Source: a virus
Strand: one strand, 5' to 3'
Virus record (IMG/VR): IMGVR_UViG_3300021964_000015
Length of the DNA stretch: 64,000 nt
The notes under the pieces are model-generated. The model ran no database searches. It was given only the letters and a program-made list of their open reading frames with translations, and had not been told where the DNA came from. A program made the translations under genes and the position numbers. This document shows, piece by piece, positions 2,878 to 62,153 of this stretch. The first letter of the stretch is position 1. Every line of letters starts with the position of its first letter.

Positions 2878-3216
2878 ATGATTGAACCAGGAAGGTACGA
2901 TATTACCATTCATCAAGGCGTCACTTTTGAACTGCCCTTGCAATACAAGGACAATGTGGGGCAGCCTGTCAATATGACAAGCTACACCGTTAGTGGCACT
3001 TTATGGGACCGACTTGGCGAAAATAAGCTTGCCAATTTTGCCTCTCCATGGACATCACAAATTAGCGGCATGTTTAAGCTGCGTTTAGAAGCTGCCACTA
3101 CAAGCGGCATCACGGAAGATGGCCAATATGACGTGATGGTAACGCAGCCTGATGGCGACACTTTTTACCTTCTTGAAGGCAATGTTAAATTAAATCCTGG
3201 ACTGTCTTGGCAATGA
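2878..3216 (+). CDS. tail-associated beta-sandwich protein
   Basis: 'YDITIHQGVTF...YDVMVT..DG..FYLLEG'; paralog of 4121-4456. Confidence 0.6.
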   Translation: MIEPGRYDITIHQGVTFELPLQYKDNVGQPVNMTSYTVSGTLWDRLGENKLANFASPWTSQISGMFKLRLEAATTSGITEDGQYDVMVTQPDGDTFYLLEGNVKLNPGLSWQ

Positions 3217-4064
3217 CACAAGTAGTAATTACAAAGCAACAAAATAGTGTTGTCATTCAAGACGGTGATGAAACAATTGTTTCACCATTGCCTAATGTAG
3301 TTGGACTTGAAATTTGGCAGCCAGGCACTCCACCAGGAGGACTTACTGGCGACATTCTTGTTAAAGCATCTGATCAAAACCATCATTCTGAATGGACTGA
3401 TGAGCCAATTGTTGATAAATTGCGTTTTGATTTGACGGCAGCAGAAGATCCAGGCACTGGCGAGATGGCTTGGAATGTTGATGAAGGTACTGTTGCTTTA
3501 GGAAAGAATGGCTTGGACCATTACATTGGCCAAGACAATTTAGTGATGTGCCGAAACAATAGCAACGTAGATGAAATTGCGAAGGGCACTGGCGTGATGT
3601 TTGCTGGCACTTTAGGAGCAAGTGGCAGGTTGAAAGTGGCGCCAATGATTGCTGATGGTAGCGTGCCAGGGTATTTATTTTTTGGCGTTACTGCACAAGC
3701 AATTTCTCCAGCAAGCGATGGCTATGTAGTGACATTTGGCAAAATTCGCGGCATCAATACAGAACTCTATCCCGAAGGAAGTATTTTGTGGTGCAGTCCA
3801 ACAACACCTGGAGGGTTTGTTACAACTGAACCTCAGGCCCCTTCATTGAAACTATCTGTTGCGGCAGTTGTTAGCAGAAAGAGTAATGGCACGATTTTTG
3901 TGCGCTGGGACACTGGACGCAGACTAAAAGATTTACATGATGTGGAAGCCAATGGTAGCGTGACTGACGGAGACATTCTCGTGTGGAGCGATGCAAATAA
4001 TAGATGGGAAGCATCTAATGCATTGTCGTTGTTAGAAGCTCGTGTTGCTGCATTGGAAGCCTGA
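3207..4064 (+). CDS. tail fibre-associated protein
   Basis: 'PPGGLTGDILVKASD', 'LKDLHDV...DGDILVW...RWE' fibre repeats. Confidence 0.6.
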   Translation: MAMTQVVITKQQNSVVIQDGDETIVSPLPNVVGLEIWQPGTPPGGLTGDILVKASDQNHHSEWTDEPIVDKLRFDLTAAEDPGTGEMAWNVDEGTVALGKNGLDHYIGQDNLVMCRNNSNVDEIAKGTGVMFAGTLGASGRLKVAPMIADGSVPGYLFFGVTAQAISPASDGYVVTFGKIRGINTELYPEGSILWCSPTTPGGFVTTEPQAPSLKLSVAAVVSRKSNGTIFVRWDTGRRLKDLHDVEANGSVTDGDILVWSDANNRWEASNALSLLEARVAALEA

Positions 4065-4120
4065 TGATAGTGATCATTGAAAGCCATTCGTGGCTATCAT
4101 GAAAGAAATACAATAAAGTC

Positions 4121-4456
4121 GTGATCTATCCTGCCACTTACGACATTGTGGTGTTGCAAAACTCCACTTTTAAGATGAGGCTTAATGCCTCGTCTAGTGG
4201 TTCGCCTATTAATGTGAGCGGCTATGTTTTTGACGCCGATATTTGCTACACGACTGGTGGTATTATTACAAGCTTTTCTTCTGAAGTGATTTCAGCTGCA
4301 AGTGGCATTGTAGATTTTGAGCTAGTGCCAAGTCAAACTGCTGATTTTACAGAAGGTGAGTATAAATATGATTTAAATGCAACTTCTCCCAATGGCGAAC
4401 GTTACTATTGGCTAAAGGGCGCTCTCACTGTTTCTGGCACTTGTTCTAGGAATTGA
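4121..4456 (+). CDS. tail-associated beta-sandwich protein
   Basis: 'PATYDIVVLQNSTF...YKYDL...GERYYWLKG'; paralog of 2878-3216. Confidence 0.6.
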   Translation: MIYPATYDIVVLQNSTFKMRLNASSSGSPINVSGYVFDADICYTTGGIITSFSSEVISAASGIVDFELVPSQTADFTEGEYKYDLNATSPNGERYYWLKGALTVSGTCSRN

Positions 4457-24434: not shown

Positions 24435-24941
24435 TTAAGTTACATATTGTGAATTCAAAATGTAATGCAAAGTCCCCTTTGAGCTTATCTTAAACTTTTC
24501 CATCAAAGCTTTATAGCCCAGCCCTTGTAAATGATCATCTTTAATTTGCTTAACTTGTTCATTGCTAAATTTTCTTATAGAACTAGATGCTTTTATTGCA
24601 TGCTGCAATCTGTCTTTAGAAGGCCGATCAAGCATATTGTCTTTGTTTGTTCCAATACAAATGTTTTCAAAAGAGTTATCCTTTTGATTGCCGTTTAAAT
24701 GTCTAACAACTATACCGGGTTCAAACAACTTATCTTGGTATTTTTCATAAGCAACTAAACGATGCAAAAATACTTTGATTGATTTGCGTTGTATTCTTAT
24801 ATTGAAATAAAAATAACCTGCTCTAGAAGATAATAATTTTAAAGGTTGCTTTTTGTGTAAACCTAGTACACAATTATCTCTTACTCGATAACCTTTTTCA
24901 TAAGCAAGAGTTAAAGCTGTTTGTGATTCGTTCATTTGCAA
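24435..24941 (-). CDS. free-standing HNH homing endonuclease with C-terminal HTH
   Basis: 'LHRLVA...VRHLNGNQKDNSFENICIGTNKDN'; AT-richer than neighbours; next to tRNA. Confidence 0.85.
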   Translation of the reverse strand: MQMNESQTALTLAYEKGYRVRDNCVLGLHKKQPLKLLSSRAGYFYFNIRIQRKSIKVFLHRLVAYEKYQDKLFEPGIVVRHLNGNQKDNSFENICIGTNKDNMLDRPSKDRLQHAIKASSSIRKFSNEQVKQIKDDHLQGLGYKALMEKFKISSKGTLHYILNSQYVT

Positions 24942-24951
24942 AATTAAAAAT

Positions 24952-25038
24952 TGGTGCAGACGGCGGGAGTCGAACCCGCAAGGGCAAAAGCCCGACGCAT
25001 TTTAAGTGCGTTACGTAGACCTATTCCGTCACGTCTGC
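24952..25038 (-). tRNA. trnL: tRNA-Leu(UAA), intron-less, encoded CCA
   Basis: Acceptor GCAGACG/CGTCTGC-ACCA, anticodon arm ACGCA-CTTAAAA-TGCGT, long variable arm, GGTTCGACTCC T arm. Confidence 0.95.
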
Positions 25039-46112: not shown

Positions 46113-46210
46113 GCTTAAAGCTTATTACCTGCTAGAATTTGTTTTAGATAAGACACATGTGTCTTTATCTTTCACCCGATAAAAACACTGACACTGGAGG
46201 ATAAACTAAA

Positions 46211-48200
46211 GTGTTCATTGATAGCTAGTTCAGATCCTGGTAGGTATGTCCCTTCAAGATTTGGTAAATAGCTCCGTGATTACAGTTAAATTTTTCAGCA
46301 ATTTTTCTATAAGAAAGACCTGCTTCTTTTAAAGATTTAATTTGTTTCACGTCATCCGAAGAAAATTTTCTCAAAGATTTCTTCGGCTTTCCTTTACTGG
46401 CAAAACCATTGTTTTTGTAACAACCGTTTTCCCAGGCTCTTGTTAAATTTTCTTGTTTGGTAACGATCTCAAGATTAGCAAGTTGATTATTTCTCTTGTT
46501 GTTATCTTTGTGATCAATCTGTAGGGAAAAGTTACTGGTTCCATGAGAACGCAGATCTAATCCTAAAAAAGCAATTGCCATCAAGACGTGAAGATGAAAT
46601 CTTTTTCTCTTTCCATCTACAAGAACTGAAATACGGTCGTAAACACTGGTGGAACTAATAGGAATCTCTAGAAAATATTCTTGATTATCGGGATCAAGTT
46701 GTTTTTCAAAAGCTTTCCCTTCTTCCGTTAAGTAAAGATTACCAAATCCTGGAACAAGTTTTGGATTCATGTTGTTTATAAACAGGTTTCCAGACTGTAG
46801 CACGCCTCAACTGAACGCTCAACGTTGTCACCTCACCAAGCAATTGATGAGTGCAAACCGGATGAATTCAGGGAAGCCCTAACGTAAAGACGAGGGTAAT
46901 CCTGAGCCAAGCCAATCAAGAACGTGATTGGAAGGTGCAGAGACTACTGGGGGTAACACGATCTTGTTACGTAATACCAGATTCAGCGTCCGGCATCCCA
47001 CAGGGATGAAGAGATAGTCCACCCCTCTAAGAAACTAGAGACCAGGAGAACGATTTTCCAAAGATTTTAGGTGCGGAACTTTATCGTCCTCACCCTGCTT
47101 ATGTCACCGAAATGGCTGTGGAGCCCGTGGTTGTCCACGACTTCACTCGTCAGCCCGGTCAAACTGTTCAGTTAGATCGCTATAAGTTCTGGGGTACCCC
47201 TGGTACGAAGGATAGCCGCGAGCGTATCTCTGACCAGACCATTGGTACTGCCAACAGCCGCAACATCACCAAGGAAAAGGTGCTTGTTGTGCTGAAAGAA
47301 TACACCGGCCCTGCTGATCCGGGTGATCCCACTCAGCCCAGCACCTTCAAAATTGCTCGTGAAACCCTGATTACCGCCCAGCGTCTGCTGCTGGATACCG
47401 GTAACCTGAACATGTTCCACCAGAGCATTGGTTCGCTGACCCTGCTCGATGATTATCGCCGGTGGCGTGATCGTGTGTTCATTGATGAACTTGCCAAAGC
47501 AGAAGCAAACGGTGCTGCCTCCACCACACAAGGCGGTTACTACTTCGCTGGTGCCAAGGAAAAGAATGCTTCCGGTCAAATCACCTATAGCGTTGCTGAG
47601 TACCAAAGCCAAACTCAGCAGTTCCAGGTGCGTACTGACCTTCTGACCGTTGTTAAGGATCTGCGTAAGCGTAACGTTCCTACCTTCGCTGATGGTCTGT
47701 ATCGTTGCATTTGCGATCCCGTCTTCATGATGCATCTGCGTCGTGATCCTGACTTCCGTGAGATCGCTCGTTACGCTGGTACCCCTGGCCAAGGCATGTA
47801 CATGGGTAATCCCATGATGCCTAACAACGCCAGCTTCTACATGGGTCCCCAGGCTGGTCAAGGTTACTTCCTTGCCGGTGAGCCGGTGATGCCTACTGGT
47901 GTTCAGTTTGAAGGTGTGAAGTTCTTCGAATCGACCAACTTCCCCATCAAGAACGTCAACGCTTCGTTCGATGCTGGTTCCACCTACACTTCCCAGGAAG
48001 TTGCCCAAGGTTACTTCTTTGGTCCTCAGTCGATTGGTGTTGGTATCGGCGGCCCGAACGCTCAGGTGCTCATCAACAACAACGACGACTTCAGCCGCTT
48101 CATCATCCTGATCTGGCAACTGTATGCTGGTTTTGAAATCCTGAACAAGGACTTCGTTACCACCGCGTTCAGCTTCATCCAAGACGATGGTACCGTCTGA
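46211..48200 (+). CDS. major capsid protein, spliced: exon 1 46211-46222 (GTG TTC ATT GAT), exon 2 47049-48200; 387 aa, MFIDNDFPKILGAELYRPHPAY...
   Basis: GGAGG at 46196-46200; exons join in frame; strong highly-expressed codon bias; position after portal/scaffold. Confidence 0.85.
46223..47048 (+). mobile_element. group I self-splicing intron (826 nt) with HNH ORF in L1
   Basis: 5' exon ends in U, intron ends in G; P aattcagggaa 46865, Q aatcctgagc 46898, R gtgcagagacta 46935, S aagagatagtcc 47009; P1, P3, P7, P8, P9, P10 pairings all form. Confidence 0.93.
46225..46770 (-). CDS. intron-encoded HNH homing endonuclease (antisense to host gene)
   Basis: 'HLHVLMAIAF...IDHKDNNKRNNQLANLEIVTKQEN' plus C-terminal HTH. 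Confidence 0.88.
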   Translation of the reverse strand: MNPKLVPGFGNLYLTEEGKAFEKQLDPDNQEYFLEIPISSTSVYDRISVLVDGKRKRFHLHVLMAIAFLGLDLRSHGTSNFSLQIDHKDNNKRNNQLANLEIVTKQENLTRAWENGCYKNNGFASKGKPKKSLRKFSSDDVKQIKSLKEAGLSYRKIAEKFNCNHGAIYQILKGHTYQDLN

Positions 48201-51863: not shown

Positions 51864-51926
51864 CCTTTATAATGTCTATAAAAAGGAAGTAGAACATTGT
51901 CTTCAAGTTCTCTTGTATTTTTTGTT

Positions 51927-52517
51927 TTATTTGGGTTTTACGTGGCTACCTCCTTTGCCATCATGCCGTTCTTTTGAAAATGCTTTGTCAAGGGGCCATT
52001 CATTATTAAGGCGTTTTTGCATTGATTGAGGAGATATTCCAACTTCTTTAGCCCAGTCGGCAATGCACATTGTCTTACCTTCAAAGGTATAAAGTCTAGT
52101 AGCACGCTTCCCTCCTCGGTTGCGTGTCTGCTCTTTTCTTGTAGCCCATCGACAATTTTCTTTGCAGTAGTTTTTATCGTTTTCAATACGCTCTAGTTCC
52201 ATCTTGGGATCTGGTTTTTTACCCATGTCTGCTAGGAACACCGTAAAGTCTTCCCAAGAAGGGTCGTAGGTTATACCACGGGCGCCATAACGTTCATAAT
52301 GGGTTGTGCCAATACAATTGCAACGGTTTTTCATTGCGCACCATGAACCGTATTCTGGTGTTTTATCTCTGTTCCCACCATGTTTGAAGGAAGCGCAGTT
52401 TTTTGAGCAATAGACATACCCTCTATCTCGCAAACGCTTACGATGCCAAGCTGCGGTATTCCCTTGGCGCTCATAAAACTTGCCACAGCAAGCGCACTGA
52501 AAAATTGTTTGTGCCAT
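51927..52517 (-). CDS. free-standing HNH-type homing endonuclease
   Basis: 'EYGSWCAMKNRC...YGARGI...W..F..F..DMG..P....LERIENDKNY..ENCRWAT..EQ..N'. Confidence 0.85.
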   Translation of the reverse strand: MAQTIFQCACCGKFYERQGNTAAWHRKRLRDRGYVYCSKNCASFKHGGNRDKTPEYGSWCAMKNRCNCIGTTHYERYGARGITYDPSWEDFTVFLADMGKKPDPKMELERIENDKNYCKENCRWATRKEQTRNRGGKRATRLYTFEGKTMCIADWAKEVGISPQSMQKRLNNEWPLDKAFSKERHDGKGGSHVKPK

Positions 52518-52566
52518 TAGAATAAGAGAAGTTTTCGGAGGCCCCTGTCAAATTAGCAGAGACAGG

Positions 52567-53358
52567 GTGTTTAGTCAAATATCCAGTACTAGCACGAACA
52601 AGCAACCGCTCCTGGTTGATAGGCCGCTTTTTGATTCGGTTCGTGTAACCACTCAAACTGTTGGTAGTTCTACTGCCAATACACTTTTTGTGCAAGGTGG
52701 ACAAGCACCCTCTATCCTCGTGGATATGGATGCTGCACTACAAGAAGATAACAACAGTGGTGGCGTGGTTGATTCAATTACCATTACTCGTAATGACTTC
52801 TATCGTCCTGCTGATTACACCGTAAATACAGTCACATCTGGCAGTGTAATTTCTCTTGTTAGCGGTCAAGTTGTTTTTGTTGCTGAAACAGGTGTTGTTA
52901 CTCCAGCTCCTGCAAGTGGCTACGGCTATTACACCTATACAGGTGCAACTACCCTGACAGGTGTTAATACATCTTTTGAGTACTCAGGCGGATCTTCTTC
53001 AGGTTTCCTCTATAACGGTGTAGCCTGGGGAGATCAACCCAACGTTACCTTTGTCTTCTACCACACCCGTGGTACGACAACACCTATCCCTGCATCGGGT
53101 GACTACCGTGTACTCTTTGCAAAAACAGTGCCAGCAGGTAGTGGTACTGTTGATTGCTCTGATCTCCTTCCTCAGCTTGCAACACCTGTTGTTGGCGCAG
53201 GTAACACAAATGGCCTTGGTCCCACTGCGCCTCTACGCAACAAAGGCATCTACCTGGAGCGTGGTGATCGCATTTACGTTGGTGTGTTCCCTGATGGTTT
53301 GAATATTTCTGGTTACACACCAGGTGCTCACGTAACCGCACAAGGCGGATTCTTCTGA
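52567..53358 (+). CDS. structural (tail) protein with relocated start
   Basis: 'SSTSTNKQPLLVDRP...GIYLERGDRIYVG...AQGGFF'; Thr/Ser/Gly-rich. Confidence 0.6.
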   Translation: MFSQISSTSTNKQPLLVDRPLFDSVRVTTQTVGSSTANTLFVQGGQAPSILVDMDAALQEDNNSGGVVDSITITRNDFYRPADYTVNTVTSGSVISLVSGQVVFVAETGVVTPAPASGYGYYTYTGATTLTGVNTSFEYSGGSSSGFLYNGVAWGDQPNVTFVFYHTRGTTTPIPASGDYRVLFAKTVPAGSGTVDCSDLLPQLATPVVGAGNTNGLGPTAPLRNKGIYLERGDRIYVGVFPDGLNISGYTPGAHVTAQGGFF

Positions 53359-60565: not shown

Positions 60566-60940
60566 ATGGCAAACATATTAAGACCTACATACGATCCTCG
60601 TCAGGATTCAGGTACTTCTGGAGCTGAAGTATCTGACCTACGGCCTGAACAGGCATATGACACTGATCTAAGAAGGCTGGATGAAGATAAAAGAGATGCG
60701 GCTGAATCGGTTAATCGTAAACAAAATCGTGTAGCTAAATTTTTCAAAGCGGCACGCACTGCTGGTAGATATCGCCAACGTGCTGGCATTGCAGAGCCCA
60801 CAATCGATGGAGAGACACCACGCTCACGTTTGGAGATCGATGGTGTGGAATTACCTTCTCTTGGGGACTCAGGCGGGCGTGCCGGTGGTATGAGCTACGC
60901 CCGTAAGCCTTCGATTCAATTCGGCAAACCCTTTGGTTAA
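60566..60940 (+). CDS. hypothetical protein
   Basis: ATG at 60566 after TACAAT. Confidence 0.55.
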   Translation: MANILRPTYDPRQDSGTSGAEVSDLRPEQAYDTDLRRLDEDKRDAAESVNRKQNRVAKFFKAARTAGRYRQRAGIAEPTIDGETPRSRLEIDGVELPSLGDSGGRAGGMSYARKPSIQFGKPFG

Positions 60941-61524
60941 ACCTGAGAGAACACTACGTTATTAGGTTGATCTTGATACTTACCTTTTCGATCCTGGTAA
61001 GTAGTGTGGCAAGGATTACCACGATAGAAAAGTAATTGAGTAATCCCTTCATTCGCATAGATGCGATTGAACAAACCAGTGCAATTACTAATTTCAAGCG
61101 TCAGATAACCTTCCCAACCACTTTCCGCTGGCGTAATGTTTACCAAGATACCAGAGCGTGCATAGGTAGATTTACCTACAGCAACAACAGTAACGTCACG
61201 AGGTAACTTCAAACGTTCTTGTGCAACGCCAAGGCAATAGCCATATGGAGGCAACAAGAAGTACTTACCGCGTTCATCCTCCAGGAGATCAGCGGGCTTT
61301 AAAATGTCGGGATCAAAATCTTTTGGATCACAATCACCAGCTTGTACCTTACCGAAGATCAAGCATTGTTTTGGGGAAAGGCGGATATCGTAACCATAAG
61401 AGCTAAGGCCATAGCTAAGTAACTTACGGTCATCCTCACGACTGATCAGATGATCAACAAAAGGTTGAATCATCTCCTCTTCTTCAGCGAGTTTTTTGAT
61501 TTCCCAGTCGGCAAGGACGCTCAT
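60937..61524 (-). CDS. dcd: dCTP deaminase
   Basis: 'SYGLSSYGYDIRL', 'GKSTYARSG', 'GWEGYLTLE', 'YANEG..Q', 'RKGKYQ'. Confidence 0.93.
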   Translation of the reverse strand: MSVLADWEIKKLAEEEEMIQPFVDHLISREDDRKLLSYGLSSYGYDIRLSPKQCLIFGKVQAGDCDPKDFDPDILKPADLLEDERGKYFLLPPYGYCLGVAQERLKLPRDVTVVAVGKSTYARSGILVNITPAESGWEGYLTLEISNCTGLFNRIYANEGITQLLFYRGNPCHTTYQDRKGKYQDQPNNVVFSQV

Positions 61525-61556
61525 AAATCCCTGTAATCGCTCTTTAGTATACTAAA

Positions 61557-62153
61557 TCAAACAAGGAGATGGCCACGTTCTCCATACACTTTGACGAACG
61601 TATCCACAGCATCAGTGGAAGCATCCTGTGGCGGCAAGTATACAAGGAATGAGGTGCACGTTTGTTTTCTTTTTACCTCTCCATCTTTATTGCACAATAG
61701 ATAAGGTGCAGTTCGCAAGATGCACATTGGAAACTTGAAGATTTTTGGCTCGTAACGAATCATGTCAGGACAGTTGGAGAAATACAAACCTTGTTTAATC
61801 TCTCTCGCTAACCACGCATGGTACATCCGACGAAACCACACTGCATGAGATGAAGTCAATGAAATAGAAGATGCCCTTGTCATCTTCCAACGTTCATTCT
61901 TTTTATCCCAGAAGTATGCACCCGCTGGCGGAAACAGGTAAGCACTTCCGTACCACTGTTGGCTATTCAAACCATCATCCGATGGTGTGTAATATTCTGT
62001 AGCTTGTACATATTCGTTAGCAACTTTTGAACTTGCAACATCAAGATCAATGCCACCCATTAGTTCATTTGCAGCCATTACAAGGTCAGATGACGTGATA
62101 AGTTCAGCGCCTTCATTACGTGCTGTTACGCTACGTACCTTATGTTCACTCAT
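61557..62153 (-). CDS. phage Dam-like N6-adenine methyltransferase homolog, catalytic motif degenerate
   Basis: 'IDLDVASS..AN.......YYT..DDGL..QQWYG..YLFPP'. Confidence 0.65.
   Translation of the reverse strand: MSEHKVRSVTARNEGAELITSSDLVMAANELMGGIDLDVASSKVANEYVQATEYYTPSDDGLNSQQWYGSAYLFPPAGAYFWDKKNERWKMTRASSISLTSSHAVWFRRMYHAWLAREIKQGLYFSNCPDMIRYEPKIFKFPMCILRTAPYLLCNKDGEVKRKQTCTSFLVYLPPQDASTDAVDTFVKVYGERGHLLV

Follow-up and report, generated by a model that had tools for sequence, protein, structure and literature searches.

The stretch of DNA considered here (the window) comprises 64,000 nucleotides (nt) of IMG/VR record IMGVR_UViG_3300021964_000015, from an S-EIV1-like cyanophage, and its gene for an HK97-fold major capsid protein is very probably interrupted, 12 nt after the GTG start codon, by a mobile, phage-type (IA-like) group I intron. 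A gene for a putative HNH homing endonuclease lies within this intron on the opposite strand. We infer the splicing activity, the cleavage and target of the HNH protein, and its expression from sequence, and synthesis of the capsid protein would, on the same reasoning, depend entirely on splicing. The parts of the interrupted gene are as follows.

46196-46200, plus strand: Shine-Dalgarno sequence GGAGG of the capsid gene, 10 nt before the GTG
46211-46222, plus strand: exon 1, GTG TTC ATT GAT (M F I D), four codons, read from the sequence
46223-47048, plus strand: group I intron of 826 nt, last base omega-G 47048, recognised by comparison with S-EIV1 and the 58 contigs that lack it and by its match to Rfam RF00028
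46226-46228, plus strand: in-frame TAG two codons into the intron, read from the sequence
47049-48200, plus strand: exon 2 of the major capsid gene, 383 codons plus stop, giving a predicted spliced product of 387 amino acids (aa)

An insertion at a fixed site in the capsid gene

Directly after exon 1 the window reads AGC TAG (46223-46228) and the unspliced product is MFIDS*, while removal of 46223-47048 joins GTG TTC ATT GAT to AAC GAT TTT. The initial annotation, a model's reading of the letters and their open reading frames (ORFs), had placed the GGAGG, the four codons, the AGC TAG and both intron limits exactly where the sequence has them. Exon 2 begins (47049) 63 nt upstream of an in-frame ATG at 47112, in the same open frame.

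The closest phage genome, Synechococcus phage S-EIV1 (KJ410740), matches both flanks of the insertion and does not match across it. It reads MFIDTDFPKILGAELYRPHPAY uninterrupted, i.e. GTG TTC ATT GAT followed by ACC GAC TTT CC, within a 383-aa ORF; its junction is GTGTTCATTGAT then ACCGAC, and its leader GGAGGATAAAC is the same as that of the window. The GGAGGAT of the leader before the GTG is kept in S-EIV1 and in the window-type relatives. A scan of IMG/VR found about 600 contigs encoding this capsid protein, and the allele counts given here refer to the best 80 loci (locus numbers are prefixed with L). Intron-less alleles account for 58 of these 80 and read ...GTGTTCATTGAT then AACGA(T/C)TTTCC, with an exon 1 that is identical or synonymous and runs directly into AAC GAT. 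The junction predicted in the initial annotation, ATTGAT joined to AACGAT, is the exact uninterrupted sequence in L004 and many other contigs. L004 is an intron-less locus with a capsid gene 99% identical to that of the window, an identical leader and the junction GGAGGATAAACTAAAGTGTTCATTGAT then AACGATTTTCC.

All intron forms place an in-frame stop early in the intron. It is TAG in the window-type copies that bear the HNH gene and in L088, and TAA in L085 and L089, and the form without an ORF has an in-frame TAA after seven codons.

Ribozyme structure and covariation

A cmscan search of the window matched the group I intron model RF00028 to 46770-47041 on the plus strand with 91.2 bits (E 4.4e-22), well above the gathering score of 50, which bears out the class assigned in the initial annotation. 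No second intron was found in the window by the Rfam scan, even at a lax threshold (E up to 0.1). Scores of 82.6-94.5 bits were obtained for the introns of L005, L007, L085, L088, L089 and L090. The elements of the ribozyme are listed below, all on the plus strand.

46219-46225: P1 5' strand (UGAU/AGC around the splice site), pairing with 46824-46830 (GUUGUCA)
46228-46233: P1a 5' strand (GUUCAG), pairing with 46811-46816 (CUGAAC)
46823-46830: internal guide sequence CGUUGUCA, comprising the P1 3' strand (46824-46830) and the P10 strand (46823-46826)
46832-46851: P2 hairpin, 8 bp with a GCAA tetraloop, two pairs of which show compensatory change among close copies
46858-47020: catalytic core, from the cmscan alignment
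46858-64 with 46987-93: P3, CCGGAUG/CGUCCGG
46868-73 with 46900-05: P4, from the cmscan alignment
46876-80 with 46893-97: P5, from the cmscan alignment
46906-08 with 46934-36: P6, from the cmscan alignment
46912-18 with 46925-31: P6a, from the cmscan alignment
46940-46 with 47015-20: P7, GACUA/UAGUC, invariant, with bulged A41
46947-46980: P7.1-7.2, a stem-loop between P7 and P3'
46994-47008: P8, from the cmscan alignment
47025-47040: P9 hairpin (CUCUA/UAGAG), from the cmscan alignment and pair counts

The pairings named in the initial annotation (P1, P10, P3 and P7), together with the terminal G, are all present in the sequence. U46222 and G46827 form the U-G pair at the 5' splice site. Exon and guide also change together in P1: at exon position -4 the window and L089 have ATT GAT with a guide ending in GUCA (a U-A pair), and L085 and L088 have ATC GAT with a guide ending in GUCG, making a C-G pair. 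P1 and the 6-bp P1a are common to HNH-bearing and ORF-less introns. P10 pairs CGUU (46823-46826) with AACG of exon 2 (47049-47052); it is invariant in 14 distinct copies and has 3 bp in L088. The ligated exons would pair with eight contiguous guide bases.

The introns of more distant relatives add to this picture. L085 belongs to a more distant lineage, with an HNH protein 63% identical to that of the window and an RF00028 score of 93 bits; its P1a is ACUCAG/CUGAGU, with two compensatory pairs, its P2 is entirely different in sequence and keeps the same 8 bp and GCAA loop, and its P9 is CUUCA/UGGAG, with one compensatory and one wobble change. The cmscan alignment, together with the sequence itself, gave the pairs of P2 to P10; 71 pairs were counted in 18 copies (14 distinct), and 98% of the cells were paired. 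Changes on both sides were seen in eight pairs, located in P2, P6, P6a, P7.2 and P8, versus 0-1 in controls slid by 1-3 columns. The minimum free energy fold of the short intron recovered P2-P9 (z = -3.0); P1 was not recovered in that fold, as is usual, and its support is comparative. The insertion is confirmed as a genuine group I intron with a ribozyme structure backed by covariation.

Intron subgroup and nearest introns

The P7.1/P7.2 position between P7 and P3', occupation of which marks subgroup IA, holds one extended hairpin (46947-46980) in the window, and in L005 this element is replaced by a different sequence of the same shape. The nearest DNA matches are phage introns, in a Vibrio phage terminase gene and in the DNA polymerase genes of a Ralstonia T7-like and a Bacillus SPO1-like phage, with further matches in psbA of S-CBWM1 and in tRNA regions of jumbo phages. 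Because of the P7.1/P7.2-type insert and these nearest matches, the intron is placed as phage IA-like; the insert being one extended hairpin, this does not imply IA2. A resemblance to cyanobacterial trnL(UAA) introns, suggested in the initial annotation, does not hold up: likeness to the tRNA-Leu (IC3) type is not supported by the insert, the location in a protein-coding gene or the nearest matches, these three features and not a direct alignment being what sets the two apart.

Two of the database matches are of interest in themselves. In jumbo phages of Klebsiella and Escherichia (L083:1501-1683 in Klebsiella phage phiKp_21, for example), a sequence that lies between tRNA genes and carries no annotation matches the ribozyme core at 76-77% identity; it is probably an intron-split tRNA gene. 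Vibrio phage vB_VpaM_R16F (L082:712-3202) has its large terminase subunit annotated in five separate pieces; the intervals of about 230 nt between them match the ribozyme core, and several group I introns are probably present there.

The capsid protein and its true start

The product of the interrupted gene is an HK97-fold major capsid protein. Pfam and PDB sequence searches gave no match for it and a fold search was needed. An AlphaFold model built from 18 homologs (pLDDT 75, pTM 0.76) was matched by Foldseek against the PDB with probability 1.0 to the capsids of cyanophage P-SCSP1u and Pan3 (the top matches), and also to those of GP4, N4 and T7. The protein matches the PHROG 1357 major head protein (E 2.6e-16), and the gene follows portal and scaffold-like genes.

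The product of exon 2 is 87% identical to the uninterrupted S-EIV1 ORF, and the representative of a 90%-identity cluster, P0108, is 387 aa long, just as the spliced product is predicted to be. The expectation of the initial annotation that intron-less homologs start MFID-NDFPK is supported: the 58 contigs carry the joined sequence, and so does S-EIV1, with ACC GAC in place of AAC GAT. Full-length homologs at 28-53% identity, recovered in an exhaustive profile-free search, all start 4-7 residues before the first residue of exon 2 and keep D-x-x-FP-x-LL-G-x-x-L-x-R-P-x-P-x-Y, with an N-terminal arm of the form M-x(3-6)-D-x-x-FP-x-LL-G. Among the 80 loci, the first 24 nt of exon 2 show synonymous variation only.

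A start at the internal ATG (47112, MAVEP...), which the initial annotation had named as the outcome that would count against its reading, is refuted by these comparisons, because homologs as remote as 28% identity still have the N-terminal arm; the capsid protein starts at the GTG. The initial annotation was right that gene callers shorten the protein by 25 aa: the Joint Genome Institute (JGI) gene calls on intron-bearing L085 and L089 use the internal ATG and give 355 aa rather than 380.

The S-EIV1 reference itself (KJ410740; L001:3018-4244, record 60784-62010) leaves the major capsid gene unannotated. In its place are an antisense 'hypothetical protein' (3018-3779, minus strand) and a 3' fragment (3774-4244), and the uninterrupted 383-aa capsid ORF lies at 3093-4244 of L001.

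The antisense HNH gene

46225-46770, minus strand: gene for the HNH homing endonuclease (181 aa), which runs antisense to the capsid gene and has its stop at 46225-46227
46242-46807, no strand assigned: HNH cassette, a 566-nt insertion replacing the 16-nt apical hairpin of the ORF-less intron, from alignment with L007 and L074

The minus-strand ORF 46225-46803 matches HNH_3 (PF13392, E 9e-9), HTH_38 (PF13936, E 3e-5) and the PHROG 59 HNH endonuclease (E 3e-26), and residues 43-176 align with I-HmuI (PDB 1U3E) from the HNH motif through the C-terminal helix-turn-helix (E 8.6e-7). It is predicted to be an I-HmuI-like homing endonuclease. The GTG at 46803 was rejected as its start: the residues upstream vary, and the ATG at 46770 is conserved. 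All 15 full copies have an intact ORF with the conserved ATG and a TAG stop at intron nt 3-5. The mean ratio of nonsynonymous to synonymous substitution (dN/dS) is 0.11 over 55 pairs, and the ORF is therefore taken to be a working minus-strand protein gene. Its homologs form about 100 protein clusters in public metagenomes, one group being 76-96% and another 50-66% identical; every member examined of the latter group again lies antisense in the same capsid-gene intron, and this layout is thus kept in lineages with an HNH protein 51-66% identical to that of the window.

The initial annotation had put an antisense HNH gene in L1. The HNH identity, the orientation and the L1 region all stood, and the location can be refined to the apical loop of the P1 extension (P1a). 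The last six codons of the gene (YQDLN plus stop) lie in sequence common to the ORF-less intron, which has CAG where the HNH-bearing intron has the HNH stop. This arrangement fits a history in which a nuclease cassette entered an intron already in place and its frame ran on into the ribozyme; the opposite order, in which a cassette was lost from a longer intron form, may apply instead.

Within the window no close paralog of this HNH gene was found, the only relative being an ORF of 27% identity at 24456-24833; another antisense HNH gene, at 51868-52600, has no detectable similarity to that of the intron. The ORF at 24456-24833 (minus strand) adjoins a tRNA gene at 24955-25038 (minus strand) with a long variable arm and the anticodon loop CUUAAAA (58 bits). 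A hairpin, AGATAAGACA...TGTCTTTATCT, occurs at 46146-46170, between a gene for a 151-aa protein and the capsid Shine-Dalgarno sequence. It is kept in S-EIV1 with altered bases, and the region is flagged as terminator-like on the minus strand, where its position is just past the HNH stop.

Allelic states, mobility and alternative explanations

Besides the 58 intron-less loci, 15 of the 80 have a full HNH intron of 824-826 nt that is 89-100% identical to that of the window, five have an intron copy cut by the contig end, and two (L007 and L074) have a 276-nt intron at the same site with no ORF. A maximum-likelihood capsid-gene tree of 82 rows, built with the first 150 nt of exon 2 omitted, requires 12 changes of the HNH-intron state, and well-supported branches force at least 11 of them. 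Pairs less than 1% apart and different in intron state are the window and L004, L005 and L006, and L033 and L034. The intron is apparently still mobile, and the scatter of its states over the tree would fit either active homing or frequent loss.

A more distant lineage shows the 5' end of the capsid gene to be an intron hotspot. L088 (877-1483) and L090 (713-1323), on the minus strand of these loci, each have two RF00028 matches in the capsid gene, the first being the same intron with its antisense HNH gene and the second an intron with no ORF, inserted after ...VVVHDF some 93 nt beyond the first. Both loci also have a LAGLIDADG_2 gene (L088:2093-2845, L090:1983-2735) just upstream of the capsid start; like the HNH gene it runs antisense to the capsid gene, and it may be a free-standing homing endonuclease.

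Among the alternatives, the one that survives best accepts that the intron splices and proposes that the HNH protein is kept mainly as a weapon, which cuts the essential capsid gene of co-infecting intron-less relatives and spreads the intron as a by-product. Strong purifying selection on the HNH gene, an essential and highly conserved late gene as target, and the coexistence of intron-plus and intron-less alleles in very close relatives would all suit such a role, for which the intron endonuclease of PhiPA3, shown to act in competition between co-infecting phages (PMC11620839), is a precedent. The same evidence, however, fits plain homing equally well and the two roles are not exclusive, while the persistence of ORF-less introns in L007 and L074 indicates that the nuclease is not always kept by the intron. 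A role mainly as a weapon is possible and, on balance, unlikely.

Much further down stands a dead or non-splicing relic, with the capsid protein made from the ATG at 47112 and lacking its N-terminal 25 residues. Gene callers do choose this ATG on intron-bearing contigs, and splicing in this phage is a prediction. Against this, compensatory changes maintain the ribozyme core and the guide strand of P1 covaries with the exon; no window-type copy with an intron has lost exon 1 or the GGAGG; the 21 codons ahead of ATG 47112 change synonymously; and the N-arm is conserved in the distant homologs. No Shine-Dalgarno sequence precedes ATG 47112. We regard a relic as highly improbable.

That the HNH protein is instead a packaging-associated protein, like those encoded beside terminase or portal genes in some phages, is barely credible: the gene does sit in the head-gene block, a few kb from a portal-like gene of 758 aa, but S-EIV1 and about 70% of close relatives lack it, and it always lies inside the intron on the opposite strand and matches I-HmuI in architecture and sequence, including the C-terminal helix-turn-helix.

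Proposed mechanism

For the preferred reading, a mobile group I intron that splices from the capsid transcript, the following course can be proposed. The late transcript would fold with the guide CGUUGUCA paired first to exon 1 (P1, with the U-G at the splice site); an exogenous G would then attack after U46222, as in the established group I mechanism, and the guide would align exon 2 through P10, with release of omega-G47048. Guanosine-initiated self-splicing of this kind would remove 46223-47048 and leave an mRNA for a 387-aa capsid protein starting MFIDNDFPK, and unspliced RNA would yield only the pentapeptide MFIDS. The early in-frame stop would limit translation into the ribozyme. In-frame stops limit translation into the ribozyme in the T4 introns also.

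The tip of the extended P1 stem appears to have received the I-HmuI-like HNH gene in reverse orientation, and this gene would borrow its last six codons and stop from intron sequence. Because it faces backwards it would not be translated from the capsid pre-mRNA and must have transcription of its own. In co-infecting relatives its product may nick or cut capsid alleles that lack the intron, near the conserved start, and repair would copy the intron into them.

Some points weigh against this reading. With an exon 1 of only four codons the ribosome-binding site lies unusually close to P1, which might be expected to hinder splicing; the scattered intron states could come partly from phage-phage recombination and not from endonuclease-driven homing; and neither a promoter nor a ribosome-binding site that would convincingly serve the antisense HNH gene was found. 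The best promoter candidate upstream of its ATG, TTGAGC-17-TACAGT, matches at 8 of 12 positions and falls below the scan threshold. A minus-strand promoter-like site in exon 2 (47107-47078) was rejected as the HNH promoter, the same codon variants occurring in intron-less alleles.

Since the 5' splice site is only 12 nt past the start codon, a ribosome that begins on unspliced RNA would cover the P1 strand, and every transcript might then see initiation and splicing in competition. A run-on transcript of the HNH gene would be antisense to the 5' splice site, the start codon and the Shine-Dalgarno sequence. That the two together time or throttle capsid synthesis, the placement of the intron being regulatory and not only parasitic, is a speculative extension to which we give little weight.

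Comparison with known systems

We found no literature linking S-EIV1-type phages to an intron. The present case sets right how the major capsid gene is annotated in a freshwater and polar cyanophage lineage of wide occurrence, where even the S-EIV1 reference has it miscalled. The empty site, the ORF-less intron and the nuclease-bearing intron, found in near-identical genomes, form an unusually complete series at one site and would suit study of the homing cycle and of nuclease invasion of a ribozyme loop, while the four-codon exon offers a simple system for translation initiation versus P1 formation.

The layout had been presented in the initial annotation as lying outside the usual pattern of introns in DNA-metabolism genes with same-strand endonucleases, but it has a precedent in the Cluster J mycobacteriophage LittleE. 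Pope et al. (2013; PMC3706429) described a capsid-gene intron of about 820 nt in this phage, with splicing shown by reverse-transcription PCR and N-terminal sequencing and with an endonuclease, gene 14, on the bottom strand, 'transcribed in the leftwards direction'; they also cited a capsid-gene intron of lactococcal phage Tuc2009. In LittleE as in the window, a tailed phage has its major capsid gene interrupted by a group I-type intron of about 820 nt that bears an opposite-strand endonuclease gene, and in both exon 1 ends in U and the intron in G. Related phages are intron-less in LittleE's case too, and a related ORF-less intron is found in BAKA. The two differ in that splicing was shown in LittleE and is predicted here, that the LittleE ORF is called LAGLIDADG-like in the text and HNH in a legend while the present one is clearly I-HmuI-like HNH, and that LittleE is an actinophage and the present host phage a cyanophage. 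Particular to the window are the position of the intron after codon 4, a nuclease in the P1 loop whose stop is shared with intron nt 3-5, and three allelic states at one site in natural populations.

The DNA polymerase introns that encode I-HmuI in SPO1 and I-PfoP3I in Pf-WMP3 are likewise phage group I introns with an HNH protein that has a C-terminal DNA-binding domain (PDB 1U3E; PMC3428280), and Pf-WMP3, in which the HNH-bearing intron is of type IA2, is a freshwater cyanophage (PMC3428280). Their nuclease genes, in contrast, lie within DNA polymerase genes, where they occupy other peripheral loops and read on the sense strand, and nicking has been demonstrated for them, whereas activity here is a prediction. 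Antisense homing-endonuclease genes are also known from group I introns of nuclear ribosomal DNA (rDNA), e.g. at position L2066 (PMC9548176), where the nuclease gene again lies opposite the ribozyme strand in a peripheral loop. Those introns differ in encoding His-Cys box enzymes in eukaryotic rRNA genes, with RNA polymerase II expression and spliceosomal introns, while the window has a bacterial-type HNH in a phage protein-coding gene. Taken against these systems, the intron of the window is not a new kind of element, its layout being already that of LittleE; its special points are the four-codon exon, the P1-loop nuclease that shares its stop with the intron, and the natural series of three alleles.

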